The notes: generated from the sequence alone by a model not told the origin. A stretch of DNA of 64,000 bases from Kofleriaceae bacterium (GCA_965215005.1 CBDCCZ010000010.1:156063-220062); one strand, 5' to 3'. Counted from the stretch's first letter, positions 42,856 through 63,823 are shown. Made by a program: numbers and translations.

Positions 42856-42865
42856 GGAGGACGCC

Positions 42866-45049: not shown

Positions 45050-45408
45050 GTCAAATGACGCATTGCAAACGCGGCGCCGCTCACGCTGCCTCCGCTCGCG
45101 GGCCGCGGCGCCGGCTGCAGCTACGCGAGATCACGCACCAGCGCCGCTCCCCGCCAGCGCCAGCGGCTGTCGAGCAGACGCCACCAACGGCTCCGCACGC
45201 CCCGACGGCAACCGCACTGTCCGGCGCTCGCAGTTGCGCCTTCCACCAGCCGACACCTCGCCACCCGAGCAGCCAACCACCCTCCGCGCATGCGGTCGGC
45301 GAGCCTTAGCCGAACGTAAGCTCATCGGCCGAGCAAATGCTGCTCGAGGAACTGGACCGTGAGGAGCTGATAGATGTCTCGGTTCTTCTTCTATGCTCGA
45401 GCAGCCGC

Positions 45409-46275
45409 TCACTCGCCGACGCTGAGGCGGCGCAGCTCGATGGTCGCGGCAATCCGATCGACACCGAGCAGGATTGACTCGAGGAGCTCACTACCCTCGG
45501 CGAAGCTCGCTGGCGCCAGGTTGTCGACGCGGCGGCCGCGGCCGATTGCTCCCTCCACCTGCCAATGCGCCGGCTCGCTGCCCGATACCACACCGATGGC
45601 GATTCCGCGGTGGCTGTTCATCAAGCTGAAGCAAGGCACATCGCTGTAGCCATCGCCGACATAGATCATCTGGCTGAACGGAATCGCGACGTCGTCATCA
45701 CTCAGCGGGCTGTGCAGGTCGGGTACGAAGTCGCCGTCGTCGTTGCCATGCACGCCGCGGGCAATCTGCAGCAGGTAACGAGTCTTCTCGGTGTGACTGA
45801 TGGTGCGCTTGGGAAAACAGATGACGCCGTCATCGTCGAAGGCGAAGCGGCTGGCATAAATGGCGTCGAGCTGCTGGGCCAACGCAGCATGTTCGATGAT
45901 GTCGCCGATGCCGGCGCTCACGATGTAGAGCTCGACCGCGGCACTGCAGCCCTGCTGCTTCAGTCGATCACGAACGCGGTCGAATAGCTCGATCGCGCCC
46001 GCATGCAGCGTCAGCTCGCGACCGTGCGCCGCTAATCGCTCGCGCGTAACCGGCCCGCCGAGAGCGCCGCTGCGGCTCATCTGCACCAGTACCCACATGC
46101 GCGCCAGGATCGGACTCCAGCCGCCGTCAATCAGCGGCTGCGTCTCGTCGTCGAATTCGCTCATGCTCGAGCCGTTGGCCCGCAAAAATGACTTCAGGCA
46201 GTCTGGCGCCAGCGTGTCATCGAAATCGAACACCAGCGCCAAGCGATCGTAGAGTCGAAGCGTGGAAGACGGCAC
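45409..46275 (-). CDS. HAD superfamily hydrolase
   Basis: FDFDDTL (motif I), YIVSAG (II), K (III) and YVGDGYSDVPCF (IV). Confidence 0.9.
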   Translation of the reverse strand: MPSSTLRLYDRLALVFDFDDTLAPDCLKSFLRANGSSMSEFDDETQPLIDGGWSPILARMWVLVQMSRSGALGGPVTRERLAAHGRELTLHAGAIELFDRVRDRLKQQGCSAAVELYIVSAGIGDIIEHAALAQQLDAIYASRFAFDDDGVICFPKRTISHTEKTRYLLQIARGVHGNDDGDFVPDLHSPLSDDDVAIPFSQMIYVGDGYSDVPCFSLMNSHRGIAIGVVSGSEPAHWQVEGAIGRGRRVDNLAPASFAEGSELLESILLGVDRIAATIELRRLSVGE

Positions 46276-47083
46276 GAGCCGAGAGTAGCGGCGCCACGTC
46301 TCGACGGCCAGTCCACCGGTTCAACTGGTCCGAAGGCTGAGGCGAACCGCGCCTAGTGGCGCATGAGGATCTGTTGCCGGTAGGTAGCAAGCCGTTGCCA
46401 AGCGGTGACAGTAAGGCGTCGCAATCACGTGCAATGGGGGCGCTGCGGCCTGGTCCAGCGCTTGCTGCAAGGGGTTGCATGGAGCCTTCAGCGAAAGAAG
46501 TATGCGGCTACTCGCAGCGCGTGTTGATCGACGCGCATCTGCCGGGGGTTCGCGGCGGCAACGCCATCAACCGGCCGGCCGTGGCGGCGGGAGTTTTCGC
46601 GTGGGCCTTGCAGACGGCTAGCCCGACGCAGTCGGCGCCACCGGCTATAGAAAGCGTTAGCGACACGATGTCGCGACTTACGGTGAACAGGGTACTGCAC
46701 CGGATCTCTCCTGATAGGCAGATCGGGTCGTTGATGTCGCGAGCTGTCGTCAATCGCTTCGCCTGATTCCTCGGAGCTCGGCTGCGTTTGCGTCACATCG
46801 CGGAGATGCTGTTCGGCAGGCAACTTTTAGCCGCGACCAGTAATGCGATTTGAACGTCAGCAAGTCCGGCCAGGTCGCACCGGATTGGCAGGTTGCCACT
46901 TGCTAATTCCAGAAGAAACGCAGCATCGCATGATGATCGTGCTGCTCCCATTGAGCGCGCCGGTCTGGGAAGCAGGACCGCAACCAGCTGGCCGAGGGTT
47001 CCATAAGCAGCCAAGGCCGCTCCTTGGGAAACACTGCAATGGGCCGGCGAGCGTTCTGAATTCCGTCTTGAGCGAGGTGTGTC

Positions 47084-48073
47084 GTGATCGATAGAAGTAA
47101 CGAAGTCTACGCTGAACTGATCGACGTCACACTGCGCGATGGCGGTTACCTAAACCAGCACGAATTCGCGGCAGACGACATCGACGGGATCGCCGGCGGT
47201 ATTAGCGCAGCCAGAATTCGATATGCGGAGATTGGCTATTACCGGCCTAGTTACGGCCCACACGCGCTGGCGGCGCCCGCGCGCTGTGACGCCCAGTATC
47301 TTCATCGCCTCCGTCGGCACCTCCCTGAGGCGAAGCTCGTGTGCATGGTACATCCGTCGCAGGTGCCTGCCGAGAGCTTGGACGAGCTCGCCGATCAGGG
47401 AGCGGACGTCGTACGTCTGGCGGTAACGCCGAAGACGCTCGTTGGGGCCCGTGCACACGTCCAGGCCGCCCGAGCTGCTGGCCTGATCGGCTCGGTCAAC
47501 TTGATACGAGCCAGCGAGCTGCCCGTGCAGTCCATTCTCGATACCGCGGCGCAAGCCGAGGATGCGGGAGCGCACTGGTTCTACGTTGCCGACTCCAACT
47601 CCGGCATGCACCCGGACGGCGTAGCACGCATCTTTGATGCGCTGCGCGCTAGATCTACGTTGCGCATCGGCTTTCATGCGCATAACGCCCTTCAGCTCGC
47701 GCTCGCCAATAGCCTAAGCGCCATTCGGTCGGGTGCCACACTGATAGACGGATCTCTTGGCGGCATGGGTAAGGGTGGCGGCAACTTACCTACCGAGCTG
47801 ACCGCCGCGGTTCTGAACGCCATGGGTGTGACCGAGTACCGGCTCGGGCCTCTCGCGGCGGTCGTCGAGCGACACATTCGCAAGTGGACGTCGGGGGTAA
47901 GCGCCTACGAGCGCTCGATTAGCGCGTTGTTGAATCTCAATCTCGAGCAGTACGAAGCATTCGAGCGCGAGTCCCGCGCTACGCATCAACCGCTGCTCTC
48001 GCTCCTGGAAGAAGCCCTCCGCACCGGCGATCGAGATCGGGCGGCTCCTGGAATCAAAACCGCGACCCTGTAG
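47084..48073 (+). CDS. DRE-TIM metalloaldolase, 4-hydroxy-2-oxovalerate aldolase (DmpG/NikB/RhiG)-like
   Basis: [61 protein letters not shown] upstream. Confidence 0.88.
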
Positions 48074-48855
48074 TGAGCTTTACGATGAACACACACGAAT
48101 TCCTCCGGTCCCTTGACGAGCAAATCGGCTCGCGGAAGAAGATGACGAGCCCGCTCTACCAGATCATCATGAGCGGCAAGGCCACGCCGCGACTGCTGAA
48201 GAACATGGTGCTGCAGCGGTGGCCCATCAAGAGCTTCTGGACCCGCAACATCCTCGGCATCGCGTCGCGCGTCGAAAACTACGAGCTTCGCAAGAGCCTG
48301 GTCGAGAACATCTACGAAGAGGAGACCGGCGCAATGTCGCGCTCTCGCCGCCACCTCGAGACCTTCGCCGACTTTGGCGCCTGCGTTGGCGTCGAGCGGG
48401 CGGCGCTCGACACCGTCGAGCCGTTGCCCGAGACCCGGGCGGTAGTCGACCACAACGTTGCCGTATGCAACACCGAGATTCACTTTACGGCCGGCGTGGC
48501 CTCCGTCTTGCTGCTGATGGAGGGCCAGCCGCCGATCGTCCGCAGCGACGGTCAGAGCATGGAGGCGGTGATGCGCGACGTCTACGAGCTGCCGCCGCAA
48601 GGCGTCGAGTATTTCACCCATCACGCCTCGTCCACGGCGGAGGACGAGCACGTGAGCGAGCTCGAAGACGACCACGCCCGCGCCGCGCGCGAGCTCCTCG
48701 CGCGCTACTGCGATACGCCCGAGCTGCGCGCCCTGGCCTCAGATAGCCTGCGCCGAGCCATCGAGCTGCGTCACCGCCACTTCGAAGCACTCGTCCACCA
48801 CTACTTCGACGAGTCCGAGCGGCCCTTCCGGTGGAGCGAGCGAGGCGCATCATGA
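48073..48855 (+). CDS. Heme-oxygenase-like diiron oxidase (HDO; CADD/PqqC/TenA-like fold)
   Basis: ENIYEEETG...HLETF..F, MEGQ and YFTHH...EDDH match the E/H/E/H/D-E/H metal-ligand pattern. Confidence 0.8.
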
Positions 48856-49772
48856 GCGGCGCTTCGCGACCACGCGTCGTCTATCACGACGGCGCGTACG
48901 TGGCTGAATCCGCCGCCGTTGTCCCGGTGGCGTCGCAGGCGATGCGCTATGCGTTGTCGGTCTTCGAGGGCGTTCGCATGTATACGCGATCGGCCCAGGA
49001 GCGGCCGCGTGCGTTTCGCCTCGAGGACCATCTTCGGCGCCTGCGCCAGTCCCTGCGGGTCATGCAGATGCCCTGCGACGACCTCGACACCCTCCCTGCG
49101 ATCATCGAGCGTCTCGTCGATGACAACGCGATCGATCACGACTGCTACGTCCGCATCGCGGTCAGCGTGGTGTCGCCCGGAACCATGCGCGAGCTAGCGA
49201 TTCGCACCGCGACTACCGTCAGTGTGACGTCGATGGGCCGTAAGTCATGGCTCGCCGAAGGGCGGGCCATGCGGGTCTGTATCGGCCCCTGGCAACAACC
49301 GGCCGCTCTCGCCTTCCCACCCGAAGTCAAGTGCATCGCGCGCTACGCCGGGGCTCGCATGGCATCGCTGCAGGCGCGCCGATCCGGCTACGACGAGATC
49401 ATTCTGTTGGGTGCAAACGGTCACCTCACGGAAGCCCCCACGGCAAACCTGTTCCTGGTGCGCGACGGCATCGTATGGACACCGCCGGTGCGCGATGGCG
49501 CTCTTCCGGGCATCACGCGGGCGACCCTGCTCGAGCTAGCGGCGTCTCGCGGGCTCACGGCACGGATCGAGTCCCTGAGCCGCGACGACGCCTATGGTGC
49601 CGACGAAGCGTTTGTGTGCGGCACCGGGCTCGAGCTCGCACCGATCGAGTCATTCGATGGCCTGCCCGTCAGCTGCCAAGGCCTGGGGCCTATCACCAAA
49701 TCGCTCATCGGCGCCTACTTCGAGACCGTTCGGTCGTCGACTGACGGTCGCGCAGCCTTGGGGGCACTGTGA
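48852..49772 (+). CDS. Class IV PLP aminotransferase (branched-chain/D-amino acid type)
   Basis: [25 protein letters not shown] (PLP lysine), [14 protein letters not shown] and [10 protein letters not shown]. Confidence 0.92.
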
Positions 49773-51145
49773 TCGATTGGCCGACTACCGCAAACGTGTT
49801 GGCGTGCCTCGAGCCGACCGCCGCCGCGGCCTTGGCCGAGCAAGTTGCCACGACGCTCCGCGAGGCGCCGGTGTTTCGCAACACCGACTATCCATTCACG
49901 CCGGTCCCGATGTTCGTCGAGAGCCGCGCCTTGAGTGCGCTCATCGAACGGACGCAAACGTACGTCGCGCTGCTCGAGAAGGTCATTCGGCTGTACCGCG
50001 AGCACGGAGATGTCCGGCGCTTCTTCGGCCTCGATCCCGCGGCCGAGGGGCTGGTGGCCACCCGTTCCGGTCTAGCTCGCGAGATCGCCATCTGCCGGCT
50101 TGACGGCTATTTAACGGCCGGCGAATCGCAGCTCTGCGTGCTCGAGAACAACTCGGACTGTCCGGCGGGCACGCTGTTCACCCAGCGCTTGAACGCCGCC
50201 ACGGATCACGTCATCTCGGCCACCCTGTCATCGCTCGGGTTGATGAGCCGAGCGATGCCCGCCGATGTGCCGGGCGCCATGCTCGAGGCGCTGCTGTCGA
50301 GCTATCGCGCATGGGGCGGCGGAGCGTCGAGCCCCCGGCTCGCGATCCTCCAGCTGGCCGGCCGATCAAACGTCGAAAGCCATGAGATGGCCGCCGAGTT
50401 CACGCGCCTCGGAGTCGCGGCGGTCGTGCTCGATCCGCGCGAGGCAACCTTCACCCTGGGCGGCGTGCACCACGAGGGCGAACGGATAGACCTCGTGTGG
50501 AACAAAATCAACACCGCGAGCTTTCGCGACCTGCTCGCGGAGTATCCAGACGCGGTCGAGCAGTGGCGACGCTGCATCGACACCGGCGCCATCTGCCACC
50601 TCAACGGGTTCGGCGCCCGCTATGTCACCGAGAGCAAGCTGTGCACCGCGTTCGTTCAGGAAGAAGCCTTCGCGCCGCTCTTCGACGACGCCGAGCGCGA
50701 GCTCGTGGCCACGCTCTTGCCCTGGGCGCGCAAGGTCGAGGCTGACCGCTCCGTCGATTGGCGCGGTGACCGCGTCGATTTCGTGTCGCTGCTTCTCGCC
50801 CGCCAGATGGACTTCGTCCTCAAGCAGCCCTATGACATCCGCGGTGACGGCGTCACGGTTGGGCGAGGTGTCGACCGAGACACCTGGTGCGCGGCGGTGG
50901 CCAGCGCTGTCCGCGATGGACACGTCGCGCAAGCCTACGTGCGTCCCACGACCGTCCCGATCGTGACCGACCTAACGCCGCGGATCACACCGATGCCCGC
51001 CAGCCTGGACACCTTCTTGTTCGAGGGCCGGTTTCAGCTACTCGGCAGCAAGGCAAGCTTTCACGACAAGCTGAACCTCTTCCAGGGCGGGCGAAAGATC
51101 GCCGTGCGCGTTGCCGCGCCCATCCCCGCCGCTGACGGCTCATGA
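49769..51145 (+). CDS. Circularly permuted ATP-grasp ligase (glutathionylspermidine-synthase-like fold), #1
   Basis: RLDGY, VLENNSDCPAG, ESK, FVLKQPYDIRGDGVTVGR and VAQAYV. Confidence 0.8.
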   Translation: MIDWPTTANVLACLEPTAAAALAEQVATTLREAPVFRNTDYPFTPVPMFVESRALSALIERTQTYVALLEKVIRLYREHGDVRRFFGLDPAAEGLVATRSGLAREIAICRLDGYLTAGESQLCVLENNSDCPAGTLFTQRLNAATDHVISATLSSLGLMSRAMPADVPGAMLEALLSSYRAWGGGASSPRLAILQLAGRSNVESHEMAAEFTRLGVAAVVLDPREATFTLGGVHHEGERIDLVWNKINTASFRDLLAEYPDAVEQWRRCIDTGAICHLNGFGARYVTESKLCTAFVQEEAFAPLFDDAERELVATLLPWARKVEADRSVDWRGDRVDFVSLLLARQMDFVLKQPYDIRGDGVTVGRGVDRDTWCAAVASAVRDGHVAQAYVRPTTVPIVTDLTPRITPMPASLDTFLFEGRFQLLGSKASFHDKLNLFQGGRKIAVRVAAPIPAADGS

Positions 51146-52164
51146 GGGAGATCCGTGTTCATGGCGACGCCTTCCAGCGCGGCGTTCAGCATGGCCGCCA
51201 AGCCGGCGCCGCGATCCGCGCGTTCGTCGCCGATCGCATGGCACGCGTCAATGCGCTCCGGCCGCGGCCGCTGGAGCCGAGGCACGTGGTCGCCCGGTGC
51301 CGAGAACATGCAGCCATCGTCCGTGAATGCCTTCCGGCGCTCGACCGCGAGATTCGCGGCTTGGCAGCCGGCGCCGAGATTTCCGCCGACGATGCCTACC
51401 TCCTTCAGCTACGCCGGGAGCTCATCGCCTTCGACCGCGACTGTAGCTCGCTCGCCTACGTGGATCCCGAGGCCGGGCCGGTCATCGCTCAAAACGTGGA
51501 TCTACCCGGAGGCATGGCGCCCCTAGCCACCATCCTCCGTGTCGACGATCCGTTGGCGCCGCGGCACTGCCTGGTCACCTTCGCCGGCCTTCTCGGATAT
51601 CTGGGCATCAACGAAGCCGGCGTGGCCATCGGCATCAACATGGTGCTCTCGGACGACTGGCAGGTCGGCGTTCCGCCGTATCTGCTCGTGCGCCACTGCC
51701 TAACCCTCACTAGCATCGACGACATCATCCACGAGCTGCAGCGCATCCCCCGCGCCAGCTCGCGGAGCTTTTTGGTGGCCGACGCGCATGAGGTCGTTAA
51801 CATCGAGATGACCGCGCGTGAGCTGCGGGTGCTGCGCAGCCCGCTGCACGTGCACACCAATCACTTCCTTCACCCAGAGCTCGCCGTTCACGAGACGCTC
51901 GACGCCGACGCGCGGGCGCGCTCGAAAACGCGCCTCGAGCGTCTGCGATCGCTGGTCGACGGCGGCGCTCTCACCGTCGATGGCGTCGGTGACTTCCTCG
52001 CCGACCATGGCCCCGAGGGGGCCAGCATTTGCGCTCACACCGACGGCGACCTTCGTCGCGGCGAGACCGTCGCCTCGGTGGTCCTGACACCCGGGCGGCG
52101 CTCACTTCGGGCGCTCGCCGGCCACCCTTGCCAGAACTCTTATCGAACATTTTCTCTGTCATGA
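51142..52164 (+). CDS. C45 family autoproteolytic acyltransferase/hydrolase (Ntn hydrolase, IAT-like)
   Basis: RGVQHG, EIRGLAAGA, D-C-S-S autocleavage Cys, AQNVD, GINEAGVAIGIN and HTNHF. Confidence 0.88.
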   Translation: MREIRVHGDAFQRGVQHGRQAGAAIRAFVADRMARVNALRPRPLEPRHVVARCREHAAIVRECLPALDREIRGLAAGAEISADDAYLLQLRRELIAFDRDCSSLAYVDPEAGPVIAQNVDLPGGMAPLATILRVDDPLAPRHCLVTFAGLLGYLGINEAGVAIGINMVLSDDWQVGVPPYLLVRHCLTLTSIDDIIHELQRIPRASSRSFLVADAHEVVNIEMTARELRVLRSPLHVHTNHFLHPELAVHETLDADARARSKTRLERLRSLVDGGALTVDGVGDFLADHGPEGASICAHTDGDLRRGETVASVVLTPGRRSLRALAGHPCQNSYRTFSLS

Positions 52165-52982
52165 CGCAACGAATTCAGCACTACAACGTATTCGGCGCCG
52201 ACGACGCGTCGGGCAACACGGCGGCGGTCCTGCCGCAAGACGATCGCGATGACCAGGCCATGCGACAAGTCGCGGCGTCGGTCTCGGCGGTCACCACGGT
52301 CTTCGTCGCCCCCGCCAGCGATGCGGCGGCCGCGGTTCGCTTCTTCACCGCCACGTCCGAGCTGTCGCTGTGCTTCCACGGCCTCTTGGCCGCCAGCGCC
52401 TGGGTGCTCGATGAGCGCGGAGCCGATGCCGTAGCGCTCCGCATCGGCGATCGGCGATTCCGCGTCCAACGGCAGGACCGCGTGCATTATGTCGAGGCGG
52501 GTGAGTATCGCGAGGCCCCGTCGCCCCTTGCCGAGGCCGACGCACTCGCGCTGCTTGGCCTCGACGTCGACGACCGCGGCGACGGCCCCCTCTGCGTCGC
52601 CTCGATCGGCAGCCCCAAGCTCCTCGTCTCCGTCGCGGATCCGCGTCGCTTAGCCGCGGCTCGACCGAATCTAGCGGCCATGGCCGATGCCAGCAAGATG
52701 CACTCCTTCAATGGCGTTTACGCCTACGCCGCTGCCTCGGCTGCTGATCCGGTGCAGATCGACGCGCGCGGCTTCAATCCCCTGCACGGCGTCGATGAGG
52801 ATCCGGCCACCGGTGTCGCCGCCGGCGCTCTTGGAGCGGCACTGTCTAGGCGCGGAAGACTGCGCGGCGGGTGCGAAATCTCGCAAGGCACGGCGCTGGG
52901 GCAACGAAACCGCATTTACGTCGCTGTCGGCGACACGGTTCGCGTCGGCGGCACCGTTAGGAACAGCGAGGTGGCGAGATGA
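52161..52982 (+). CDS. PhzF family isomerase/epimerase
   Basis: NVF....GNTAAV, VRFFT..SELSLCFH, SIGSP, EDPATG.AAGAL and QG..LG. Confidence 0.88.
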   Translation: MTQRIQHYNVFGADDASGNTAAVLPQDDRDDQAMRQVAASVSAVTTVFVAPASDAAAAVRFFTATSELSLCFHGLLAASAWVLDERGADAVALRIGDRRFRVQRQDRVHYVEAGEYREAPSPLAEADALALLGLDVDDRGDGPLCVASIGSPKLLVSVADPRRLAAARPNLAAMADASKMHSFNGVYAYAAASAADPVQIDARGFNPLHGVDEDPATGVAAGALGAALSRRGRLRGGCEISQGTALGQRNRIYVAVGDTVRVGGTVRNSEVAR

Positions 52983-53650
52983 ACGCGCTCACAGTCGAAG
53001 TCGTCGATCAATTCGGTCGGCTCAGCACCGCAACGATCTCCGACGCCATGGACACCCTCGGGCTCCCCGCCGGCTGCCATGGAATTCGCCCGATGATCGC
53101 AGCTCGATCCTTCGTGGGATTGGCCCATACGATTCTCTACGCGCCCGCGCGCGCCGGGCAGAAGTCTCCCGCGCCCAACTACCTCAACGACATCGCAGCC
53201 GGGTCCGTCGTCGTGATCGACAACGGCGGGCGCACCGAGTGCACAGCGTGGGGCGATCTGCTGTCTCTAGCGGCATTGCAACGAGGCATCGCCGCCACGG
53301 TCATCGACGGCGCCTGCCGTGACGTCGACGCGATCGAGGCCATCGGCTACCCGGTGTTCGCCAAAGCTGCCTTCATGATGTCGGGAAAGAATCGCAACCA
53401 AATGGTCGCGGCGCAGGTCCCCGTGACCATCGGCGAGCGCGAGGTCACCCCCGGCGACATTCTCCGCGGCGACGGCAGTGGCGTGGTCGCGGTGCCGAGC
53501 GCGCGAGCGCGCGAGGTGCTCGACATCGCCCTGCGTATCGAGGAGGTCGAAGGCTACATTCGCGACGACGTCAGCCGCGGCGGCTCGCTCGCCGAGTCCC
53601 GCAAGCGGCATGGGTACAACGCGTTTGGCTGGCGCGGGGAGCCGCGATGA
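52979..53650 (+). CDS. RraA-like / 4-hydroxy-4-methyl-2-oxoglutarate (HMG) aldolase family protein
   Basis: STATISDAMD, VVVIDNGG, WGDL, DGACRDVD and PGDILRGDGSGVV. Confidence 0.9.
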   Translation: MNALTVEVVDQFGRLSTATISDAMDTLGLPAGCHGIRPMIAARSFVGLAHTILYAPARAGQKSPAPNYLNDIAAGSVVVIDNGGRTECTAWGDLLSLAALQRGIAATVIDGACRDVDAIEAIGYPVFAKAAFMMSGKNRNQMVAAQVPVTIGEREVTPGDILRGDGSGVVAVPSARAREVLDIALRIEEVEGYIRDDVSRGGSLAESRKRHGYNAFGWRGEPR

Positions 53651-54873
53651 GCGACGCCAAGGCGGCCATGGCCGTCACCGCGCGGCGCGAGGGCATCGTC
53701 GGCTCCGGCGCGTCGATCATCGTCGACGGTGCTGAGCTCGCCGCCGACGAGCTCGCAGCGCTGAGCGTGCGTCTGCGTGAGCTCCTGGCCCTGCTCTGCG
53801 ATTTACCCGAGCGTCACGCGCCGCGCGGCCGCGGGCCGCTGGCGCTCTCCTTGGGACATCGCACCGATGAGCTGCCGCTGATCACCGCCGACGCGGCGCC
53901 CTTGGACCCAAACGCGCTCTTTCGCGTGGATCTAGTGCACAGCGGCGGCCGCTGGCGGGTCCTGGAGGTCAACGCCGACAGCACCGTTGGCGGCTTGACG
54001 TACGCAGCGCTGCCCCGTTTGACCGGCGCGCGCCGTTGCCAAGACGCCCTGTCGCGCTGGGCTGACGCGGTCGCTAAGCGATGCGCGGAGCGCGGCCGCG
54101 GCGCGATTATCGAGGACGAAGCGTGCGTCGCGGCCATGCGTCCAACCCTCGAGCGGATGGCAGCGGAGCTTGAGCAGCGCCTTCGCGTGCCGGTTCCAGT
54201 CATCGGCCACCGCGCCGCGCGCGCGGTCGGCACCGAGCTGCACGGCCCGCACGGCGCGCTCGGCTGGATCTATCGGTTGTTCTGTCTCGACGATATCCGC
54301 CGCGATCCGACCGGCTACGCCGGCCTTCGTGAGGCCCTCACCACCGGCCGAATTGCCGCGCCGTTCGGCTTCGAGTACCGCGTGGCCGGCAACAAAGCGG
54401 CTCTGGCTAAAGCTTGGCAGCTCCGCGACGACGGGCAGCTGAGCGCTAGCGAGGCTCGCGCGGTCGAAGAGCTGGTGCCGCGCACTAAGCTGGTGACGCG
54501 CTCGGCGATGGATGAGCTGGTCGCGCGTCGAGGCGAGCTCGTGCTCAAGCCCGCCGAAGGCTACGGCGGCATCGATGTCGTCATCGGCCGCGAGCACGCG
54601 GCGAGCGCGTGGAAGGCCAAGCTCGTCGAGCTCGTCGAGCCTGGTGCGCCACGCTTCGTCGTCCAGGACTACGTCCAGCCGCAGAAGCGCCCAGTCGTCA
54701 TCTCGCGCCCGGACGGTCAGCTCCTGTCCGGGCTCGCGCATCCGGTGTGGGGCGTGTTCGTGACCGAGGGTGAGGCGACCGGAGCAATTCTCCGCGCGAG
54801 CCTGGCCGACGGCGCCGCGGTGGTCAACGTTCGCGCCGGGGCCGCGGCGGGCCCGGTCGAGGTCGTGGCATGA
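53647..54873 (+). CDS. Circularly permuted ATP-grasp ligase, #2
   Basis: FRVDL, VLEVNADSTVGG, GNKAALA, LVLKPAEGYGGIDVVIG and VVQDYV. Confidence 0.8.
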   Translation: MSDAKAAMAVTARREGIVGSGASIIVDGAELAADELAALSVRLRELLALLCDLPERHAPRGRGPLALSLGHRTDELPLITADAAPLDPNALFRVDLVHSGGRWRVLEVNADSTVGGLTYAALPRLTGARRCQDALSRWADAVAKRCAERGRGAIIEDEACVAAMRPTLERMAAELEQRLRVPVPVIGHRAARAVGTELHGPHGALGWIYRLFCLDDIRRDPTGYAGLREALTTGRIAAPFGFEYRVAGNKAALAKAWQLRDDGQLSASEARAVEELVPRTKLVTRSAMDELVARRGELVLKPAEGYGGIDVVIGREHAASAWKAKLVELVEPGAPRFVVQDYVQPQKRPVVISRPDGQLLSGLAHPVWGVFVTEGEATGAILRASLADGAAVVNVRAGAAAGPVEVVA

Positions 54874-55760
54874 CCATCCTCATCCTGTGCCGCGAGCCAA
54901 CGCTCGACGTCACCGCGCTGGCTGCCGAGCTCGAACGGCGAGGCCACCAGGTGCTCGTTGCAGTCCCTGACCAAGTGGCCGTGGCCATGAACGAGCGACA
55001 GGTCGCCGTGCGAGTCGCCGGCCGGCAGGTCGACGTCGACGTCGTCTTCGGCTGGGTGTCGCTGCACGAGCGCGTGCGCGGCACCTGGCTCCTGCAAGCC
55101 TTCCGCGAGCTCGGTGTTTTGGTCATCAACGGCGCCGCCGTGCTCGACCTTGGCCAGAACAAGTTCCTGGCGTCTGTGCGAATGGCGCGGCTCGGCATCC
55201 CGCACATCCGCTCGGCCATCGCGTCATCGCACGCCGATGTGCAGCACTTCGCGCAAGTGTTGGGCTTGCCGATCGTCGTCAAGCCGATCGTCGGTGCCAA
55301 GGGGGACGGGGTGCAGCTCGTGCACGACGCGACCGAGCTGGCGGCGATCGCCGAGTCCTACTTTGCGCGTCGCGAGCCAGTGTACTTGCAGGAGCCGATC
55401 GACAAGCCGAGCCGCGACATTCGCGTGCGCGTCATCGACTATCGCGCCGAGCTGGCGTTCTACCGCTATGCGGCGCCCGGCCAGTTCGTCACCAACCTGG
55501 CCCTCGGCGGCCGCTGGGAGCCGTGTCCGCTCACCGAGCCGCTGAGTGCGCTCGCCGAGCAGTGCGCGCGCGCGTTCGACGCCCCAGTTGCCGGCGTCGA
55601 CGTCCTCGAGGACCCGGCCGGCGCGCTGCGAGTCATCGAAATCAACGTTACCCCGGCCATCACCTGGCCGGACGCGTCCACCGTTCAGTCGGTGTGCACC
55701 CTGCTCGAGGGAGCCGCCCGAGGAGATGCCAAAGATGGCCATCTTGATCTTCAACCGTAG
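54870..55760 (+). CDS. RimK/LysX family ATP-grasp ligase
   Basis: VINGA, NKFL, GIPH, PIVVKPIVGAKGDGV, YLQEPI, RDIRV, TNLALGG, GVDVL and IEINVTP. Confidence 0.92.
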   Translation: MTILILCREPTLDVTALAAELERRGHQVLVAVPDQVAVAMNERQVAVRVAGRQVDVDVVFGWVSLHERVRGTWLLQAFRELGVLVINGAAVLDLGQNKFLASVRMARLGIPHIRSAIASSHADVQHFAQVLGLPIVVKPIVGAKGDGVQLVHDATELAAIAESYFARREPVYLQEPIDKPSRDIRVRVIDYRAELAFYRYAAPGQFVTNLALGGRWEPCPLTEPLSALAEQCARAFDAPVAGVDVLEDPAGALRVIEINVTPAITWPDASTVQSVCTLLEGAARGDAKDGHLDLQP

Positions 55761-56937
55761 CTCCGTCTTCGATTATCCGAGCTGGCTCGCCGACAGCGAT
55801 CAAGAGCTGGTCGTGTTCACGCAGCGCGAGATCCCGACGAGCGAGGCTTACGCGGCGCTCGAGACCTTCGATAGCTTCGACCGATCGGGTCGCGCAGAGC
55901 TCCGCGCGCTCGAGCTGCGCGAGCGCTACCAGTGGCGCCACGTGTTTGGGCACTCCGAGTACGATCTGGTGCGCGCTGCGCGCTTGCGCGAGCGGCTGTC
56001 GCTGCCGGGCCAGAGCGTCGAGAGCGCCCAAGCGTACCGCGACAAGGCGCGGATGAAGGAACACGCCAGCGCGAGCGGCATCGCGGTACCCGCATTCCGC
56101 CGCTTGTCTTCGCCCCTCGATCTCGTCGATTTCGCCGACGCGCACGGCTATCCGGTGGTCGTCAAGCCGATCGACGGCGGCGGCTCGCGCGGAGTCTCGG
56201 TCTTGCGCGACGCCGCGGCGGTCGGCCAGTTCCTCGAGATGCTGCCCGATCGCCCTTACATAATCGAGTCGTTCGTCGCCGGCGAGATGTATCACGTCGA
56301 CGGCGTTTGGCACGAAGACCGGATGCTGTTCGCGGCAGCCTCGCGCTATTTGGCGGGGTGTCTCGCCTACCAGCGTGGCGACAGCCTCGGCAGCATGATT
56401 CTGCCGCCGCAAAGCGCGCTCCATGGCCGCCTCGTCGACGAGACGACGGCCATCATCCGCGCTCTGCCCAGGAGCCCGCTGGTGGCCTTCCACGCCGAAA
56501 TCTTCGTCACCGACGACGGCCGCATGGTCCTGTGTGAGATCGCCAGCCGCACCGGCGGCGCGCTGGTCGCTGAGACCCTCGAGGTCGCCTACGGCGTCAA
56601 CATCAACCGGCTGTGGACGCGTCTGGCCTGTGGCCTGCCGGCCGATAGCGAGCCGCGTTCCGCGCCCGCGCCCTACGCCGGCTGGCTGGTGATCCCACCG
56701 TGCAAGGGGGAGCTCCTCGACGCTCCGCAACAGGCGCCGTTCGAGTGGTGCGAGCGCTTCCTTGTGCCTGCCAAGGCCGGCGACCGATGCACCGCGCCGG
56801 TCGCCAGCGTCGATCACGTCGCCATGGCGATCGTCACCGGCGACAACGAAACCGAGGTCGAGGAACGACTGCGCCGGGTCGATCGCTGGTTCGCCGACAC
56901 CGTGGTCTGGAACGAGCATGCCGACGAAGCCGCATAG
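55735..56937 (+). CDS. ATP-grasp L-amino-acid-ligase-type protein (NikS/RhiM/BacD-like)
   Basis: SEYDL..AARLRE, RDKARMK, GYPVVVKPIDGGGSRGV, ESFVAGEMYHVDG, FHAEIF and CEIASRTGG. Confidence 0.9.
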   Translation: MAILIFNRSSVFDYPSWLADSDQELVVFTQREIPTSEAYAALETFDSFDRSGRAELRALELRERYQWRHVFGHSEYDLVRAARLRERLSLPGQSVESAQAYRDKARMKEHASASGIAVPAFRRLSSPLDLVDFADAHGYPVVVKPIDGGGSRGVSVLRDAAAVGQFLEMLPDRPYIIESFVAGEMYHVDGVWHEDRMLFAAASRYLAGCLAYQRGDSLGSMILPPQSALHGRLVDETTAIIRALPRSPLVAFHAEIFVTDDGRMVLCEIASRTGGALVAETLEVAYGVNINRLWTRLACGLPADSEPRSAPAPYAGWLVIPPCKGELLDAPQQAPFEWCERFLVPAKAGDRCTAPVASVDHVAMAIVTGDNETEVEERLRRVDRWFADTVVWNEHADEAA

Positions 56938-58147
56938 CACCGTCCTTCGCGCCTACGTCGCGGCGACGGCGACCAACTTCCTCGGCACTGGAGTGCAGGG
57001 AGTCGCGGTGCCGTGGCTCCTGTTGGAGCTCACCGGCTCGGCGGCCGCCGTTGGCATCCTGCTCGTGCTCCGCGCGGTGCCAAACATCGTGCTTTCGTCC
57101 TACGCCGGCGTGTTGGCCGACAGCACCAGCCGCCGGCGCATCGCCGTGTGGGCCAGCACCATCCAGGGCTGCGCAGTCTCGCTCGTGGCTGCGGCCGTCG
57201 CCCTGGGCCATCGCGACCCGCTGCTCTTGTACGCAATGACCGCGGTGGTCGGCGTAGGCAACACGTTCTTCTTTCCCGCGACGCGCGCTTTTATGCAGAG
57301 CGCCGTCGATCGCCGCGCGTACGTCGGCCTCGCGTCGATGACTGAAACCGCCATGCAGCTGGGGATGATCGCTGGGACCGCGCTCGCCGGTCCGCTGATC
57401 GTCGGCGTCGGTGCGGCGGGGGCGCTGGCCGTCGACGCGCTGTCGTTCTTGGTCGCCGCGGCGATCTTTGCACGGATGCCGGAGCAGGCCCCGATCGAAC
57501 CCCAATCCCGTGCGCCACGGCGCACGAGCCTAGCGCAGCCCCTCGAGGGCCTGCGCTACATCTATGGACGACCGCACCTGCTCGTCGCGGTCTTGCTCAG
57601 CATGATCCCGCTCGTCTGCGTGCAGGTCGACAACGTCCTGGTCGCCGCGTTCACCCGCGATGTGCTCGGCCTGGGCGCGCAAGGTTTCAGCTTGATCAAC
57701 CTCACCTATGCGGTCGGAGCGATGACCGCCGGTGCAACGATCGCCAGCTGGGCCAAGAGGTCCGCCGACCGCCCGGCATTCATCGTCGTCGCATTGGCGG
57801 CGCTCGGGGCCGCGCACGTGAGCTTCGGCATAAGTCGAACCGGGCTGGTGGCGGTGCTCGCCATGCTCGCGATTGGCCTCACGGTGGTGGCCGCGCGATC
57901 GCACCTGGCGGCGCTGGTGATGCACGCGACCGACACCAAGTTGGCCGGTCGTGTCCAGGCAAGCGTGCAGCTGCTCTCAGGTTTGCTGGTGATGGCGATC
58001 GGTCTGTCGGTCGGCGGGCTGGCCGAGGTCACCGGCTATGCCGCAGTGTTCGGCGCGCTCGGCGCTTTGTGCGCCGGCGCCGCGATAGCGGCCGCCGCCT
58101 GCCACCGCCGCGACGCCGCCCGCGCGATGACACGCGGGAGCATCTAA
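56918..58147 (+). CDS. MFS transporter (probable exporter)
   Basis: About 12 hydrophobic helices; GVLADSTSRRR motif A; AGRVQA in the C-terminal half. Confidence 0.9.
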   Translation: MPTKPHSTVLRAYVAATATNFLGTGVQGVAVPWLLLELTGSAAAVGILLVLRAVPNIVLSSYAGVLADSTSRRRIAVWASTIQGCAVSLVAAAVALGHRDPLLLYAMTAVVGVGNTFFFPATRAFMQSAVDRRAYVGLASMTETAMQLGMIAGTALAGPLIVGVGAAGALAVDALSFLVAAAIFARMPEQAPIEPQSRAPRRTSLAQPLEGLRYIYGRPHLLVAVLLSMIPLVCVQVDNVLVAAFTRDVLGLGAQGFSLINLTYAVGAMTAGATIASWAKRSADRPAFIVVALAALGAAHVSFGISRTGLVAVLAMLAIGLTVVAARSHLAALVMHATDTKLAGRVQASVQLLSGLLVMAIGLSVGGLAEVTGYAAVFGALGALCAGAAIAAAACHRRDAARAMTRGSI

Positions 58148-58149
58148 AC

Positions 58150-60645
58150 GTGCGCCTTCTCGTCGCGCTCGCGGCGACCGCGCTCGTCTGCCTCGGCGTC
58201 AGCAGCGGTGCACGAGCCGAGGTTAAACAGGCGAAGGTCCAGCGCATCATCTCGCCACCTGTGATCGATGGAGCCCTCGACGACGAAGCGTGGCTGCCAC
58301 TGACCGAGCACGGCGAATTCGTACAGCGGCAGCCGCAGAGCGGAGCGCCGCTGCGCGACCAATCTCGCTTCCGGGTCGGCTTCGATGAGCAGGCCCTCTA
58401 CGTTGCGGTGCGGGCTCATGATGTCCAGGCCGATCGCATTGACAAGCCGTTGGCGCGCCGGGACGCGGAGCCGACCTCTGACTGGATTCACGTCGCCATC
58501 GACACCGACGTCGACGGCCAGAGTGCTCTCGAGTTCGCCGTCAACCCAGCAGGTGTGCTCGTCGACGCGCTGTGGACGAGAGACAACCGGCGCGATGTCA
58601 CCTGGGACGGTCAGTGGACGGCAGCGGCCGACGTCGACGACGGCGGCTGGAGCGCCGAGTTCCGCATACCCCTCGCTTCGCTGCGCTTGCCCACCGCCGG
58701 CACCGAGCTCGGCTTTCAGGTGTGGCGACGGACCAATCGCACCGGCGAAGTCTCCTATTGGTCGACGACGCCGGCCCAGGACCCGCACATCGTTCGCCAC
58801 TTCGGCCGTATCGCTGGCCTCACCGTGCCGGCCGCCGAGCAGCGCCTCTCAGCTCGACAGCACGTCCTGCTCGTCGGCGAGCATGTTGCCGGCGCGCGCG
58901 ACGCGGCGCTCGAACTGTCGCTCGATGTCGAGTATGCCCTGTCCGAGGATATCGTCATCGAGGCGAGCCTCAACCCCGACTTCGGTTTCGTGGAGGCGGA
59001 TCCGGCGGAGATCCATCTCAGCGCCCTCGAACGATTCGTCGTCGAGCGGCGGCAGTTCTTCAACAGCGGCCGCGAGCTGTTCCTCGTGCCCCTGGGCACC
59101 GGCGTCGATACGCTGCTGTACTCGCGGCGCATCGGTCGGCCGCCGCAGGGTCGCGTGAGCCCAGCTGATGGCGCGAGCGCGCAGGTCCCGGCGGCAACCG
59201 ACGTACTCGCCGCCGGCAAGCTCCTCGGACGCGTGGCGGATCGGCTGCGGGTTGGCGCCATCCTAGCGACCACCGACCAAGCGCGGGCGCGCGTGTCGAC
59301 GAACGGCGTTACCAGCCAACGGATCGTCGAGCCGCTGACGCAATACGCGGCTGTACGCGTCGTCGATGCGCCAAGCGACGCGAGCCGCCGCATCGGCGGG
59401 CTGCTCACGGCCGTACACCGCCTTGGCGATGACACGGCTGGTCTGCATCGCACCGCCGTCACCGGCGCCGTCGACGGCTCGTGGCAGCTCGGCGCGCAGC
59501 ATCGCGCCGACGTGGTGCTACTCGGATCGTGGCTCCACGGCAGCGCCGAATCGATCGACCGCGTGATGCGCTCCCCGGTGCATTACTTCCAGCGTCCGGA
59601 CGCCGATCACCTGCAGGTTTCGGGCGTGTCGACCTCGCTCGGCGGCTACGGCGGTTACCTTCGCATTGCCAAGACGGGTGGTGTGCCGGTGCGCTACGGC
59701 GCCGATCTCGCCGTGTTCGGTCCCGGCCTCGAGCTTGGCGACCTCGGCTTCCTCAGCCGCGCCGACACCGCGCGCGCGCAGATGTCCGTTAGCCATCACG
59801 TCGTCGGTGACGGCGGGGCAGTCAGCGCCGTGGACACCGACCTGGCCGCGCGCGTAGCCTCCACCTTCGGCGGGGAGATCACCGACGCCGCGCTCATCTT
59901 GCAGTCGTCACTGCGTCTGCGCAATCAATGGACGATGACCGGCAGCGGGCGTCTGACTGCCAGAGTTCTCGATCCCACCATCTTGCGCGGTGGCCCGGCG
60001 CTGCGGACCGAGCCGTCGGGGCTGCTCGCAGCCACTGTCATCACCGATGAGCGAAAGCGAGCGCGGGGAGCGCTGACGCTGCGCGCCGCCGCCGACACCG
60101 AAGCGGCATGGGCAGTGCGAGCGATCCCGGAGCTCATGCTGCAACCGTCGCCCCGGCTGCAGGTCGACCTCGGCCTCAACGCAAGCAGGAGCATGCTCGA
60201 TCATCAGTTCGTGGCCGCCGGCGACGACCGCATGGGCGCCACGGTGGGCGCGGTCGCCGTCGACTCACTGGCAGTCACCGTGCGGTTATCACTGGCCTTC
60301 ACGCGCCGGCTGAGCGTGCAGTACTACGCGCAGGCGTTCTTGTCGGGCGCCAACTATCACGACTTCCGCGCCGTAACGATGCCCAACGCGGAGCGATATG
60401 CGACCCGTTACGCGCCCACAGTAGTCGCCGATGAGCCTGACTTCGCCGCCCACGAGCTCCACGGCAACCTCGCGCTTCGCTGGGAGATCCGCGAGGCGAT
60501 TACATTGCTCGTGCTCTGGAGCCACGAGCGCCAGCGTCGCAGCGATGATGGCCGCCTCGCCGTAGACGATGGCGTCGTCGAGCTGTGGGAAACCGCCGCC
60601 GAAGACACCATCCTCATCAAGCTCAGCAGTTGGTTCTCGCACTGA
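58150..60645 (+). CDS. CBM9-like plus DUF5916 outer-membrane protein
   Basis: Signal peptide; PVIDGALDDEAW, FAVNPAG, WDGQW, GWSAEFRIP, NPDFGFVEAD, ERRQFF, LLYSRRIG and terminal IKLSSWF. Confidence 0.85.
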   Translation: MRLLVALAATALVCLGVSSGARAEVKQAKVQRIISPPVIDGALDDEAWLPLTEHGEFVQRQPQSGAPLRDQSRFRVGFDEQALYVAVRAHDVQADRIDKPLARRDAEPTSDWIHVAIDTDVDGQSALEFAVNPAGVLVDALWTRDNRRDVTWDGQWTAAADVDDGGWSAEFRIPLASLRLPTAGTELGFQVWRRTNRTGEVSYWSTTPAQDPHIVRHFGRIAGLTVPAAEQRLSARQHVLLVGEHVAGARDAALELSLDVEYALSEDIVIEASLNPDFGFVEADPAEIHLSALERFVVERRQFFNSGRELFLVPLGTGVDTLLYSRRIGRPPQGRVSPADGASAQVPAATDVLAAGKLLGRVADRLRVGAILATTDQARARVSTNGVTSQRIVEPLTQYAAVRVVDAPSDASRRIGGLLTAVHRLGDDTAGLHRTAVTGAVDGSWQLGAQHRADVVLLGSWLHGSAESIDRVMRSPVHYFQRPDADHLQVSGVSTSLGGYGGYLRIAKTGGVPVRYGADLAVFGPGLELGDLGFLSRADTARAQMSVSHHVVGDGGAVSAVDTDLAARVASTFGGEITDAALILQSSLRLRNQWTMTGSGRLTARVLDPTILRGGPALRTEPSGLLAATVITDERKRARGALTLRAAADTEAAWAVRAIPELMLQPSPRLQVDLGLNASRSMLDHQFVAAGDDRMGATVGAVAVDSLAVTVRLSLAFTRRLSVQYYAQAFLSGANYHDFRAVTMPNAERYATRYAPTVVADEPDFAAHELHGNLALRWEIREAITLLVLWSHERQRRSDDGRLAVDDGVVELWETAAEDTILIKLSSWFSH

Positions 60646-60767
60646 GGCGGCCGGGGCTGGATCCAACGAGCCTTGCATAAGCAAGTCGATCGAGGCGCCT
60701 GCAAAGAAAAAGCTAACCGTTCACTGCCGGTGTTGAATCAACGGGCTGCCGGTGCGAATTCGTCGGC

Positions 60768-61100
60768 ATGAATCAATCAAATCGAGCGCTGGTCGAGCAG
60801 ATTGAGCAGTTGGTGCGCGAGCATTTGGAGGTGACGCGGCGCGCGGTGGCGGCGGCGGTCGAGCAGGCGTTTTCGCCGATGCCGGAGGCGTCGCGGGGAC
60901 GCACTCGCAGCGAGGTGTCGCGGGTGAGGCGGACAGCGAGTCGCGGTCGGCGGTCGAAGACCGAGTTCTTGGCGCTTACTGAGCGCTTACACGAAGCCAT
61001 GTGCGCGCATCCCGGCGAGACGATGTCGGTGTTGGCGCCAATATTCGGCACGACAGCGCGCGAAATGGAGGGGCCGGTGAAGGCACTCAAGCGGGCAACT
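60768..61100 (+). pseudogene. Truncated putative DNA-binding accessory protein
   Basis: IEQLVREHL...RRSKTE..ALTERL.EA.CAHPGETM.VLA; the sequence turns to antisense of the transposase fragment afterwards. Confidence 0.5.
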
Positions 61101-61149
61101 GCGCTTGCGCCACAGCACGAAATCGCGCCAGCTCGAGCTCGCCATCGTT

Positions 61150-61348
61150 GTTTGTTCTTTGAGTTGCGGCCGACGAGCTCGGTGAGCTTCGCGACTTGCT
61201 CGGCCAGCGCCGCGATCTGGGCGTCGCGCTCGGCTAATTGGGTGTCGCGCTCAGCTAGCTGGGCGTCGCGCTCGGCTAGCGTCGTCTCGAGCGACGTTAT
61301 CCGCGCCTCGAGATTGCGCGGGTCATCAAGCTCGTCGCCAGCCGCCAC
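61150..61348 (-). pseudogene. IS66-family transposase N-terminal fragment (coiled coil, DUF6444-like)
   Basis: LAERDAQ heptad repeats followed by VAKLTELVGRNSKN, then abrupt loss of homology. Confidence 0.7.
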
Positions 61349-61423
61349 GTCGACGTTAGATCATGATCGGATCCGCCCGTCGATCCCCTCCGCGACGGAA
61401 AAAGCAGGGGCGTGAACGGATAC
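61267..61423 (+). repeat. 157-bp direct repeat, copy 1 (IS66-like end)
   Basis: Matches 63666-63822 with three substitutions seen. Confidence 0.95.
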
Positions 61424-61442
61424 GTCGGAACAGCGCCCGAGC

Positions 61443-61895
61443 ATGGCGGCCCATCTGGTGGGCAACGTGAAGATGACGCTGCGGCTGCTCAGCTTCGACG
61501 CCGATGCCACGTCGAATCGGCAGTCGTTCTTCTCGCAGATGCTCGATGAGGTGAAGCGGGCCAAGCAGCGCAAGGACCTCGAGGTGGCGGGGGCCGCATC
61601 GGTGGGGTTCGGGGAGCTGCCGGCGCCGATCATCCGGCGCATCTCCAATCCTGCTAACGTCAACCGGGTGGCCAATGCGCTCGTCTCCTCGCTCCGCATC
61701 GACCCGGAGGAGGTGGCGGTCGACGGCGTCGCTCCGGTCGGCATGCTGTGCTTCGGCGCGATCGAAAACGGCCTTAGCTGGGTAGTCGTGCCGCTGCGTA
61801 CGCCGGACGCGGTGTACGTCTCGTTCACGGCCGACGCGGCTCTGGAAGGCGAAGTCAGCCGTTTGCGTGCCGGTCTCGAAGAGGTGCTCACATGA
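61443..61895 (+). CDS. Hypothetical protein, probably 5'-truncated by the IS end
   Basis: Begins 20 nt after the IS terminus; ATGA overlap with the next gene. Confidence 0.55.
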   Translation: MAAHLVGNVKMTLRLLSFDADATSNRQSFFSQMLDEVKRAKQRKDLEVAGAASVGFGELPAPIIRRISNPANVNRVANALVSSLRIDPEEVAVDGVAPVGMLCFGAIENGLSWVVVPLRTPDAVYVSFTADAALEGEVSRLRAGLEEVLT

Positions 61896-63571: not shown

Positions 63572-63665
63572 TTCTGTGCCCACCCAGCTTCCGGCTTTGG
63601 TCACCCGTCCATTCCCGTCTTCCTCGAACAATCCAGGTCCGGGGTGAACGTAGCGTCGCAGCCGG

Positions 63666-63822: not shown

Positions 63823-63823
63823 C

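Follow-up and report, generated by a model that had tools for sequence, protein, structure and literature searches.

What does a bacterial operon make when it sets an oxidase beside two aldolases, an aminotransferase and four ATP-grasp ligases, and which of its genes belong together? The question is raised by positions 47084-60645 (+ strand) of a 64,000-nucleotide stretch of Kofleriaceae bacterium DNA (GCA_965215005.1, CBDCCZ010000010.1:156063-220062; this whole stretch is called the window), where twelve genes run in one direction, beginning with an aldolase and a diiron oxidase of the heme-oxygenase-like type (HDO). A preliminary description had seen in them a candidate undescribed cluster for a short exported peptide, made independently of nonribosomal peptide synthetases (NRPS). 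We find that the 12-gene operon is real, and that the conserved unit within it is a five-gene cassette, not all 12 genes. The cassette is in all likelihood biosynthetic. By the reading that we favor, with somewhat better than even confidence, its product is a non-proteinogenic amino acid, obtained by cap-modify-uncap chemistry, which the operon then ligates and exports.

The conserved unit

At E ≤ 0.001, a search with the HDO gave 310 relatives; apart from the query itself, the 120 highest-ranking ones are 57-76% identical to it. From a scan of GTDB, in which 271 stretches were confirmed, 79 loci were returned, and these split by HDO identity into 63 close loci (42-76%) and 16 distant ones (20-34%). 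The full core, comprising an RDGGY-type aldolase, a CADD-like HDO, an IlvE-like aminotransferase, a circularly permuted ATP-grasp ligase (cp1), and an RraA-like aldolase, is present in 50 of the 63 close loci, and at least four of its genes in 56; once 7 loci cut by contig ends are omitted, the full core is found in 50 of 56. At the 16 loci with a distant HDO, the rest of the core is entirely absent. Aldolase and HDO sit side by side in 59 of the 60 loci having both, as do aminotransferase and cp1 in 57 of 57, and the RraA aldolase is found at 53 of the 63 close loci. Conserved synteny, which had been proposed as a check on the preliminary description, thus holds for the core but not for the full 12-gene set.

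Six uncut loci fall short of the full core (L027, L038, L050, L011, L021, and L033). The aldolase of L027 lies further along the contig, as do its C45 and PhzF genes; L038 and L050, with aldolase, HDO, racemase, and M81, are partial second copies, their genomes having L021 and L054 as well; and RraA is absent from L011, L021, and L033. L043 has two HDO genes, and the HDO match of L062 is in two pieces.

The first ten gene families of the operon occur together with a transporter in L061, L063, L065, and L066 (Bacillota); L059 nearly has the first ten, and is cut at RimK. Among 19 metagenome loci found through the L-amino-acid-ligase-type (LAL) gene, L104 resembles L066, 17 are without the cassette, and contig L105 repeats the 3′ half of the operon, with PhzF, RraA, the second permuted ligase (cp2), RimK, LAL, a major facilitator superfamily (MFS) transporter, and DUF5916 in the order of the window.

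On the core tree, the nearest relatives of the window are L004 and L005 (Kofleriaceae, Myxococcales), which points to a host that is probably a myxobacterium; the carriers include actinobacteria, myxobacteria, cyanobacteria, Bacillota, gammaproteobacteria, acidobacteria, and a spirochaete. Within groups the cassette is rare: it is present in 2 of 41 near relatives and 3 of 401 genomes of the host's class (both counts include the host genome), in 1 of 401 genomes of the genus of L033, and in 5 of 401 of that of L011. This rarity, together with a host genome in which no close paralogs of the window genes were found, suggests that the cassette has spread horizontally.

The core enzymes

The first gene (47084-48073, +) encodes a 329-residue HMGL-like class II pyruvate aldolase (PF00682, E 6e-27), whose best profile matches in PDB are 3dxi (E 3e-62) and DmpG (1nvm). 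It scores 159 bits against a cut-off of 229 for the HOA model and 144 against 286 for the DmpG/MhpE 4-hydroxy-2-oxovalerate aldolase equivalog; it keeps H198/H200, with Tyr22 at the position of DmpG's His (after RDG). It is of the RDGGY type (3dxi) rather than a DmpG. As the operon encodes no DmpF-type dehydrogenase partner, the carbonyl substrate must come from elsewhere, plausibly from the adjacent HDO.

The HDO (48085-48855, +; PF14518, E 1e-25) was modeled with a pLDDT of 90.3 as a heme-oxygenase-like helical bundle. Its top Foldseek match is CADD (1rcw, TM 0.74), and PqqC, FlcD, BesC, and UndA are also matched; several of these enzymes cleave C-C bonds. By alignment to CADD, we assigned a 3-His/3-carboxylate dimetal set, E79, H90, E146, H180, E194, and H197, and these six candidate ligands are invariant in 59 of 59 sequences. 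Five orthologs of the window HDO score 5.6-6.0 of 6 metal positions in the supplementary table of PMC13185094. The fold and the predicted ligands place the protein in the HDO superfamily, and it falls short of the equivalog cut-offs of both the CADD p-aminobenzoate synthase (TIGR04305; 55.8 vs. 200 bits) and BesC (18.9 vs. 500 bits).

The third gene (48852-49772, +; PF01063) encodes a 306-residue class IV pyridoxal phosphate (PLP) aminotransferase that is IlvE-like (216 bits, vs. 61-93 for PabC models). Residues K160, Y33, Y99, R101, Y165, R130, and K131 are invariant in 56 of 56 sequences; the IlvE-type residues are retained, and the clade-specific R130-K131 pair, which is absent from three aligned PDB enzymes, would suit an acidic substrate.

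The second aldolase (52979-53650, +; 223 residues; PF03737, E 6e-37) is an RraA-like protein of HMG/CHA type that keeps W91-G92-D93 and R114-D115. It reaches the RraA-like Pfam cut-off and misses that of the LigK-type HMG/CHA aldolase (TIGR02798; 90 vs. 304 bits). Its best profile match, PDB 3k4i (E 8e-77), was considered as a pointer to a known cluster and dropped, as the subfamily also occurs at an unrelated locus. A separate, catabolic-looking locus (L101:6400-9573) has three tandem RraA-family genes and an aminotransferase.

The remaining core gene, cp1 (49769-51145, +; 458 residues), had no Pfam match, and a single-sequence search of PDB found nothing. Its model (pLDDT 93.9) matches Cp1B (9cjn) and eukaryotic glutathione synthetases (E 8e-16). 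It is homologous to cp2 (53647-54873, +; 408 residues; hhalign 99.9%), which itself reaches 27 bits against a cut-off of 32 for CP_ATPgrasp_2 (PF14403); the Pfam cut-off missed by both window proteins is reached by the ortholog in L063. Ten of the 12 family labels of the preliminary description stand above curated Pfam or NCBIfam cut-offs, and those of the two permuted ligases are carried by fold and homology, below cut-off. Residues R110/D112/E126/N128 of cp1 are invariant in 57 of 57 sequences, and R93/D95/E107/N109 of cp2 in 21 aligned ones; the permuted fold and this R-x-D...E-x-N tetrad assign both to the circularly permuted ATP-grasp enzymes of the glutathione synthetase/Gsp/Cp1B type. 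According to PMC12568646, Cp1B requires R139, D141, E163, and N165, which is the same pattern, and joins a dicarboxylic acid to L-amino acids as an amide. We consider cp1 probably to be a capping enzyme, paired with the C45 amidase and adding a dicarboxylate (succinyl-like) group, rather than a peptide builder. The idea that the ATP-grasp enzymes build a peptide is supported by their intact catalytic motifs, but probably loses at least one of the four, cp1. A natural fusion of cp1 with PhzF exists (P0140); cp1-family fusions in P0140, P0158, and P0176 are to PhzF, to a second permuted ATP-grasp, and to GNAT. A lone cp2 homolog lies elsewhere in the genome of L019 (L102:8487-9737).

Exchange of amidases and isomerases

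Between cp1 and RraA lie two genes that other loci exchange. The first (51142-52164, +; 340 residues) encodes an autoproteolytic N-terminal nucleophile (Ntn) amidase/acyltransferase, the proposed uncapping enzyme, which we assign to the C45 Ntn hydrolases from its score (NF040521, 219 bits vs. a cut-off of 85) and the presence of the nucleophile Cys101; it also matches PDB 2x1c (E 7e-21). The second (52161-52982, +; 273 residues; PF02567, with TIGR00654 above cut-off) encodes a PhzF-family isomerase/epimerase.

C45 is replaced elsewhere by DapE, M81, or penicillin amidase, making four unrelated families for one slot (63 loci: C45 11, M20 19, M81 17, and penicillin amidase 4). One family fills the slot in 49 loci, two in 1, and none in 13. 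Shuffling would give 11.4 loci with two families, an expectation that treats kin as independent, which they are not; because the loci are related, the tree gives the fairer count, and on the 51-tip core tree the amidase label changes 6 times, compared with 23 for shuffled labels. An IQ-TREE topology (without supports) likewise gives 6 changes. All 19 M20 proteins are above the cut-off of the DapE succinyl-diaminopimelate desuccinylase; in 5 of 5 genomes the DapE of the cluster is a second copy that has diverged, and three genomes whose cassette is without DapE have one DapE copy each.

The isomerase slot holds either PhzF or an N-succinyl-amino-acid-racemase-type enzyme. Of 26 enolase-family neighbors, 24 were scanned, two broken ones being omitted; 20 are above TIGR01928, an o-succinylbenzoate-synthase model that also covers N-succinyl-amino-acid racemases, and 4 resemble Ala-Glu epimerases. 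M81 is accompanied by the racemase-type enzyme in 17 of 17 loci, and C45 by PhzF in 10 of 11. Taken together, the DapE and racemase-type partners, the cp1-PhzF fusion, and the tetrad shared with Cp1B point to an N-succinyl-like amide that would be made by cp1, epimerised, and then cleaved.

A proposed pathway and its alternatives

The pathway is drawn from gene content, folds, intact catalytic motifs, and co-occurrence, all of them observed; we infer the order of its steps and all of its substrates. The skeleton, a 4-hydroxy-2-oxo acid and probably a di-acid, would come from the two pyruvate aldolases; the HDO would either provide the partner that its neighbor, the RDGGY aldolase, uses or oxidise it. 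The IlvE-like enzyme would install an L-amine, which cp1 would cap with succinate or a similar dicarboxylate, and the cap would stop the amino-oxo intermediate from closing into a ring, the role that succinylation has in the diaminopimelate (DAP) pathway. HDO oxidation is tentatively placed between capping and the next step, in which PhzF would epimerise or isomerise the capped intermediate; C45 would then strip the cap. Finally, cp2, the RimK-like enzyme, and LAL could append one to three residues, and the MFS transporter, perhaps with the DUF5916 protein, would export a small polar peptide. The same core is wired elsewhere to an acyl carrier protein (ACP) and an acyl-AMP ligase, or lies near NRPS genes, which supports a biosynthetic reading. 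The cap-uncap logic, taken by itself, is slightly favored. As product class, a hydroxylated glutamate- or DAP-like antimetabolite delivered as a peptide is the most likely; a DAP-like skeleton proper is unlikely.

A bolder version, which we rate as rather unlikely, has the HDO cleave a C-C bond to leave an aldehyde on a succinyl-capped amino acid, which a dedicated aldolase would re-extend with pyruvate. The result would be a DAP or glutamate mimic carried in a Trojan-horse peptide and, in fosfomycin producers, an overlooked and co-regulated second cell-wall antibiotic. If true, this scission and re-extension would be a reaction pair not yet described.

Several observations weigh against the cap-modify-uncap pathway. 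The fold of the HDO does not reveal its reaction. Cp1 is 14% identical to Cp1B, and glutathione synthetases score almost equally, which leaves room for a glutamyl cap or a permanent peptide bond instead. Thirteen of the 63 loci show no amidase, although L027 has a C45 beyond its flank and five are cut by contig ends; neither racemase nor PhzF is found at 13 of the 19 DapE loci. The five-gene operons L019, L024, and L035 look complete without amidase, downstream ligase, or exporter; they nest within a clade with DapE, cp2, and LAL, and look reduced. RraA is missing from L011 by a clean ~560-bp deletion relative to L007, and the genome holding L021 and L038 has it at neither locus, with no close ortholog elsewhere. 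Lastly, 21 of the 63 loci have no downstream ligase in view, and L014 has ABC binding-protein genes just upstream.

The strongest competitor, a minority prospect of some weight, is that cp1 and the other ligases build a pseudopeptide first, to which the HDO then adds a warhead, in the manner of E-64, dapdiamide, or mangotoxin. The amidase would then have a part in releasing a prodrug, in transacylation, or in self-protection, and the additional DapE might be a resistant form of the target. Such a route has precedents, in that Cp1B makes a permanent epoxysuccinyl amide (PMC12568646) and the mangotoxin HDO, MboA, acts on an ATP-grasp-made tripeptide (PMC13185094). In addition, there are acyltransferases among the C45 enzymes, and the second DapE is diverged. 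However, four unrelated amidases swap one-for-one, which would not be expected of a target copy; an amidase persists where cp2, RimK, and LAL are absent (cp2 is found at 0 of 17 M81 loci); and M81 never occurs without its racemase-type enzyme (17/17).

It is improbable, in our estimate, that the genes form a catabolic module, in which an imported (D-)amino acid or peptide would be N-acylated, racemised, deacylated, and transaminated, after which the HDO would hydroxylate it and retro-aldol reactions would split it to pyruvate. An N-succinyl racemase and a desuccinylase are a known pair in D-amino-acid utilisation, both aldolase families are mostly catabolic, the same RraA subfamily is found at the catabolic-looking L101, and the loci without downstream ligase and the binding-protein genes of L014 would fit. 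Against this stand the four ATP-consuming ligases and exporter-type MFS of the window, the versions with ACP, AMP ligase, or NRPS, and the rarity and patchiness of the cassette (1/401, 5/401, and 3/401 genomes); furthermore, no aldehyde dehydrogenase was found among the 140 flanking ORFs scanned, and binding proteins occur at one locus only.

A pathway to a folate- or pterin-like cofactor, with a CADD-type p-aminobenzoate synthase, a PabC-like lyase, and an MptN/CofF-like glutamate ligase, is very improbable: CADD is the best HDO model and structure, and the RimK-like protein matches MptN (E 5e-39), yet the CADD model is reached at 55.8 of the required 200 bits, the class IV enzyme is IlvE-like rather than PabC-like, RimK is found in only 5 of 63 loci, and LAL and an exporter are present. 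The host genome has two PabB/TrpE-like genes, both scoring under the PabB cut-off.

Ligation, export, and other outputs

In the favored cap-modify-uncap scheme, the remaining window genes would handle the finished amino acid. The RimK-family alpha-glutamate-ligase-like enzyme (54870-55760, +; 296 residues) reaches 163 bits against a cut-off of 143 for TIGR00768 and is below cut-off for the LysX and MptN models (LysX, 140 vs. 276 bits). A LysW carrier was not found in the host genome (92.8% complete; the control matched in 4 of 14), and the operon does not group with the LysW/LysX amino-group carrier clusters. The LAL-type ATP-grasp (55735-56937, +; 400 residues; ATP-grasp_4 above cut-off) has L-amino acid ligases as its best profile matches in PDB (4wd3, E 2e-32; BacD; BL00235). 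It is followed by the MFS transporter (56918-58147, +; 409 residues), nearest to exporter families (TIGR00900 and EntS), and LAL precedes MFS likewise in L059, L061, L063, L066, and L105. The last gene (58150-60645, +) encodes an 831-residue DUF5916 protein with a CBM9-like N-terminus and a signal-peptide-like start (PF19313, E 1e-33; PF06452; Atlas concurs). DUF5916 is absent from the 63 genome loci; on the metagenome contig L105 it occupies the same position, with 48% identity. The protein could be an outer-membrane partner of the exporter.

With free-standing ligases, an exporter-type MFS, and no A or T domains, the window itself has the make-up of an NRPS-independent ATP-grasp cluster. This independence, claimed earlier for the cluster, holds for the window: among 17 ORFs scanned, beginning at 47084, no A-domain, polyketide synthase (PKS), or carrier protein was matched. 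It does not extend to the cassette, because its output varies between loci. Among the 63 loci, cp2 is found at 22, LAL at 19, RimK at 5, and glutamate-cysteine-ligase-like genes at 4. An ACP with an acyl-AMP ligase is found at 4 (L023, L027, L036, and L053), three of which have a gene that looks KAS-III-like (ketoacyl synthase III) by eye and has no family match, and NRPS A-domains lie near the core at 16, an association of proximity only. By motif, A-domain codes were readable in 9 of 22 extracted segments, and no substrate was obtained from them. Of all these versions the ligase set of the window is the richest, so what it makes is probably the free building block extended by one to three residues.

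Other variants were seen among these loci. Free ACP versions occur at L023, L027, L036, L053, and L058, four of them with the acyl-AMP ligase, and L023 and L053 share a similar NRPS module pair. A glutamate-cysteine-ligase-2 gene is present at L006, L008, L010, and L015; the cyanobacterial versions add an EamA transporter, and L006 and L010 also a penicillin amidase. A nitroreductase-family gene is found at 20 of the 63 loci (e.g., L040:14458-15012) and not in the window; its product could be a redox partner of the HDO. Upstream of its cassette, L034 (1-2410) has an AurF N-oxygenase and a TauD gene.

Relation to known systems

Clusters that combine an HDO with ATP-grasp enzymes are already a known kind: PMC13185094 puts the number of HDOs near ATP-grasp genes at 1447, spread over 25 or more biosynthetic gene cluster types. 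Five orthologs of the window HDO belong to its input table, and the cassette may already be among the types. The window could be placed with none of the CADD, Bes, mangotoxin (mbo), LysW-type, or phosphonate systems. The mbo operon (MboA with the ATP-grasp enzymes MboC/D) resembles the window in its stand-alone HDO, ATP-grasp ligases, and transporter; however, MboB-type reductase and MboE deiminase families are not among the 12 genes, and the six-gene operon, as described in PMC13185094, has no aldolase, aminotransferase, amidase, or isomerase step.

The Bes pathway shares the CADD/BesC fold (Foldseek rank 21 for the window HDO), but neither a halogenase nor a BesB-type PLP enzyme is among the 12 genes. 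In that pathway, which leads to beta-ethynylserine, the ligase BesA caps an amino-acid intermediate. The E-64 ligase Cp1B is the best sequence-profile and structure match of cp1 and has the same tetrad, whereas the E-64 system (PMC12568646) is fungal, makes a permanent epoxysuccinyl amide, and uses an alpha-ketoglutarate oxygenase instead of an HDO.

The succinylase DAP route and tabtoxin-type paralog recruitment are echoed by the DapE-type desuccinylases of the cassette's relatives and by the LAL and MFS output, and PhzF has the DAP-epimerase fold. Relatives also carry aminotransferases whose best model, in the seven tested, is the DapC-like PRK07777; two of the seven exceed its cut-off. In contrast, neither a DapD/TabB acyltransferase nor TblS was seen, and capping would be driven by ATP-grasp; the cassette also adds an HDO and two aldolases. 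Azomycin (RohR/RohS) and guanitoxin (GntA/B/E/G) follow an HDO, aldolase, and PLP-enzyme logic, and rhizocticin and nikkomycin an aldolase, aminotransferase, and ATP-grasp logic. All four use other aldolase or aminotransferase families; no phosphoenolpyruvate (PEP) mutase was found in the host genome, and nucleoside genes and a NikA/DmpF-type dehydrogenase are absent from the window.

In the literature searched, which leaves most subscription journals outside its coverage, we found no description of the gene combination, in agreement with the preliminary description. The cassette defines a compact, uncharacterised HDO clade with fixed partner enzymes, in a superfamily from which new oxidation chemistry continues to emerge. 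Cp1, for its part, would act in bacteria as an ATP-dependent dicarboxylate ligase. Which assays should come first can be read from the swaps seen in nature, among four amidases, two isomerase folds, and three output systems, and non-pathogenic carriers in culture (Paenibacillus, Aneurinibacillus, Streptomyces, and Micromonospora) make the product directly testable.

The fosfomycin neighborhood

One version of the cassette lies beside fosfomycin genes. The Streptomyces fradiae protein ACG70819.1, annotated "putative coenzyme PQQ synthesis protein c", falls in an HDO cluster and shares 65% identity with the window HDO and 97% with that of L011. In L011 (S. wedmorensis), the aldolase, HDO, aminotransferase, cp1, cp2, and MFS genes lie ~9 kb from HppE. 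In both L007 and L011, the cassette adjoins HppE (PDB 1zz6, E 1e-131), a B12 radical SAM enzyme, FomD, and an Asp/Glu racemase, with PEP mutase a little further out; at the far side is a LuxR-like gene. Compared with the window, L011 has DapE and an Ala-Glu-epimerase-like enzyme in place of C45 and PhzF, has no RimK, LAL, or DUF5916, and has lost RraA by deletion. L011:1-16450 and L007 also carry DUF6025 and TauD.

Woodyer and co-workers (2006) reportedly sequenced the HDO-bearing interval, which sits between fomR and the minimal fom genes, along with the fosfomycin cluster and found that fosfomycin can be made without it. The interval is inside the MIBiG fosfomycin entry and is not known to have an assigned product. 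A MIBiG search would therefore probably hit this version of the cassette, without removing its novelty, and the cassette would account for the orphan genes beside the fosfomycin cluster. No passage on fomR or fomE is present in the review PMC9088020. That the cassette is an accessory part of fosfomycin or phosphonate metabolism is suggested by these neighbors of L007 and L011, but is the most improbable of the explanations, because no PEP mutase was matched in the host genome (92.8% complete) and no HppE in 4 of 5 cassette-bearing genomes of the Streptomyces sample; the fosfomycin link is a special case, and the host's operon does not belong with the phosphonate clusters (rhizocticin, fosfomycin).

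Operon architecture and flanks

The twelve genes are stop-free ORFs on the + strand, in the order and with the overlapping or near-abutting junctions given by the preliminary description. With refined starts (HDO 48085, aminotransferase 48852, PhzF 52161, LAL 55735, MFS 56918, and DUF5916 58150), the eleven junctions measure +11, -4 (seven times), -26, -20, and +2 nucleotides, amounting to overlaps at 9 of 11 and gaps of 11 and 2 nucleotides at the others; junctions this tight leave no room for a small carrier gene. Eleven genes have a G+C content of 0.78-0.88 at third codon positions; the first gene (47084-48073) is lower, at 0.70. A 17.5-kb contig of run X1 covers 46000-60823 with zero differences; that run is probably the source sample, and hence not an independent confirmation. 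Rfam gave 0 matches within 40000-64000, promoter and terminator scans did no better than chance, the HDO had no plasmid match, and no regulator gene adjoins the operon.

Upstream (40336-46275), cupin, CopD-like, and NnrS genes on the + strand are followed by genes for an SLH-domain protein and a HAD-like phosphatase on the - strand, divergent from the operon. Genes past 60645 were dropped as cluster members, being absent from the 63 loci and flanked by repeats that resemble insertion sequences (IS). The window ends with its contig, and its last part (60700-64000) has IS-like remnants, copies of which are found on other contigs as well, together with a 160-bp direct repeat of 97.5% identity (~61263-61422 and ~63662-63821). 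Depth-2 contigs end at a split in a family 4 glycosyltransferase (GT4) gene and at the junction of GT4 with a GNAT gene, so the split may be an assembly artefact. The IS-like repeats enclose an unknown 150-residue ORF, the split GT4 (61892-63177), and the GNAT, which has a weak ArsN1 match.

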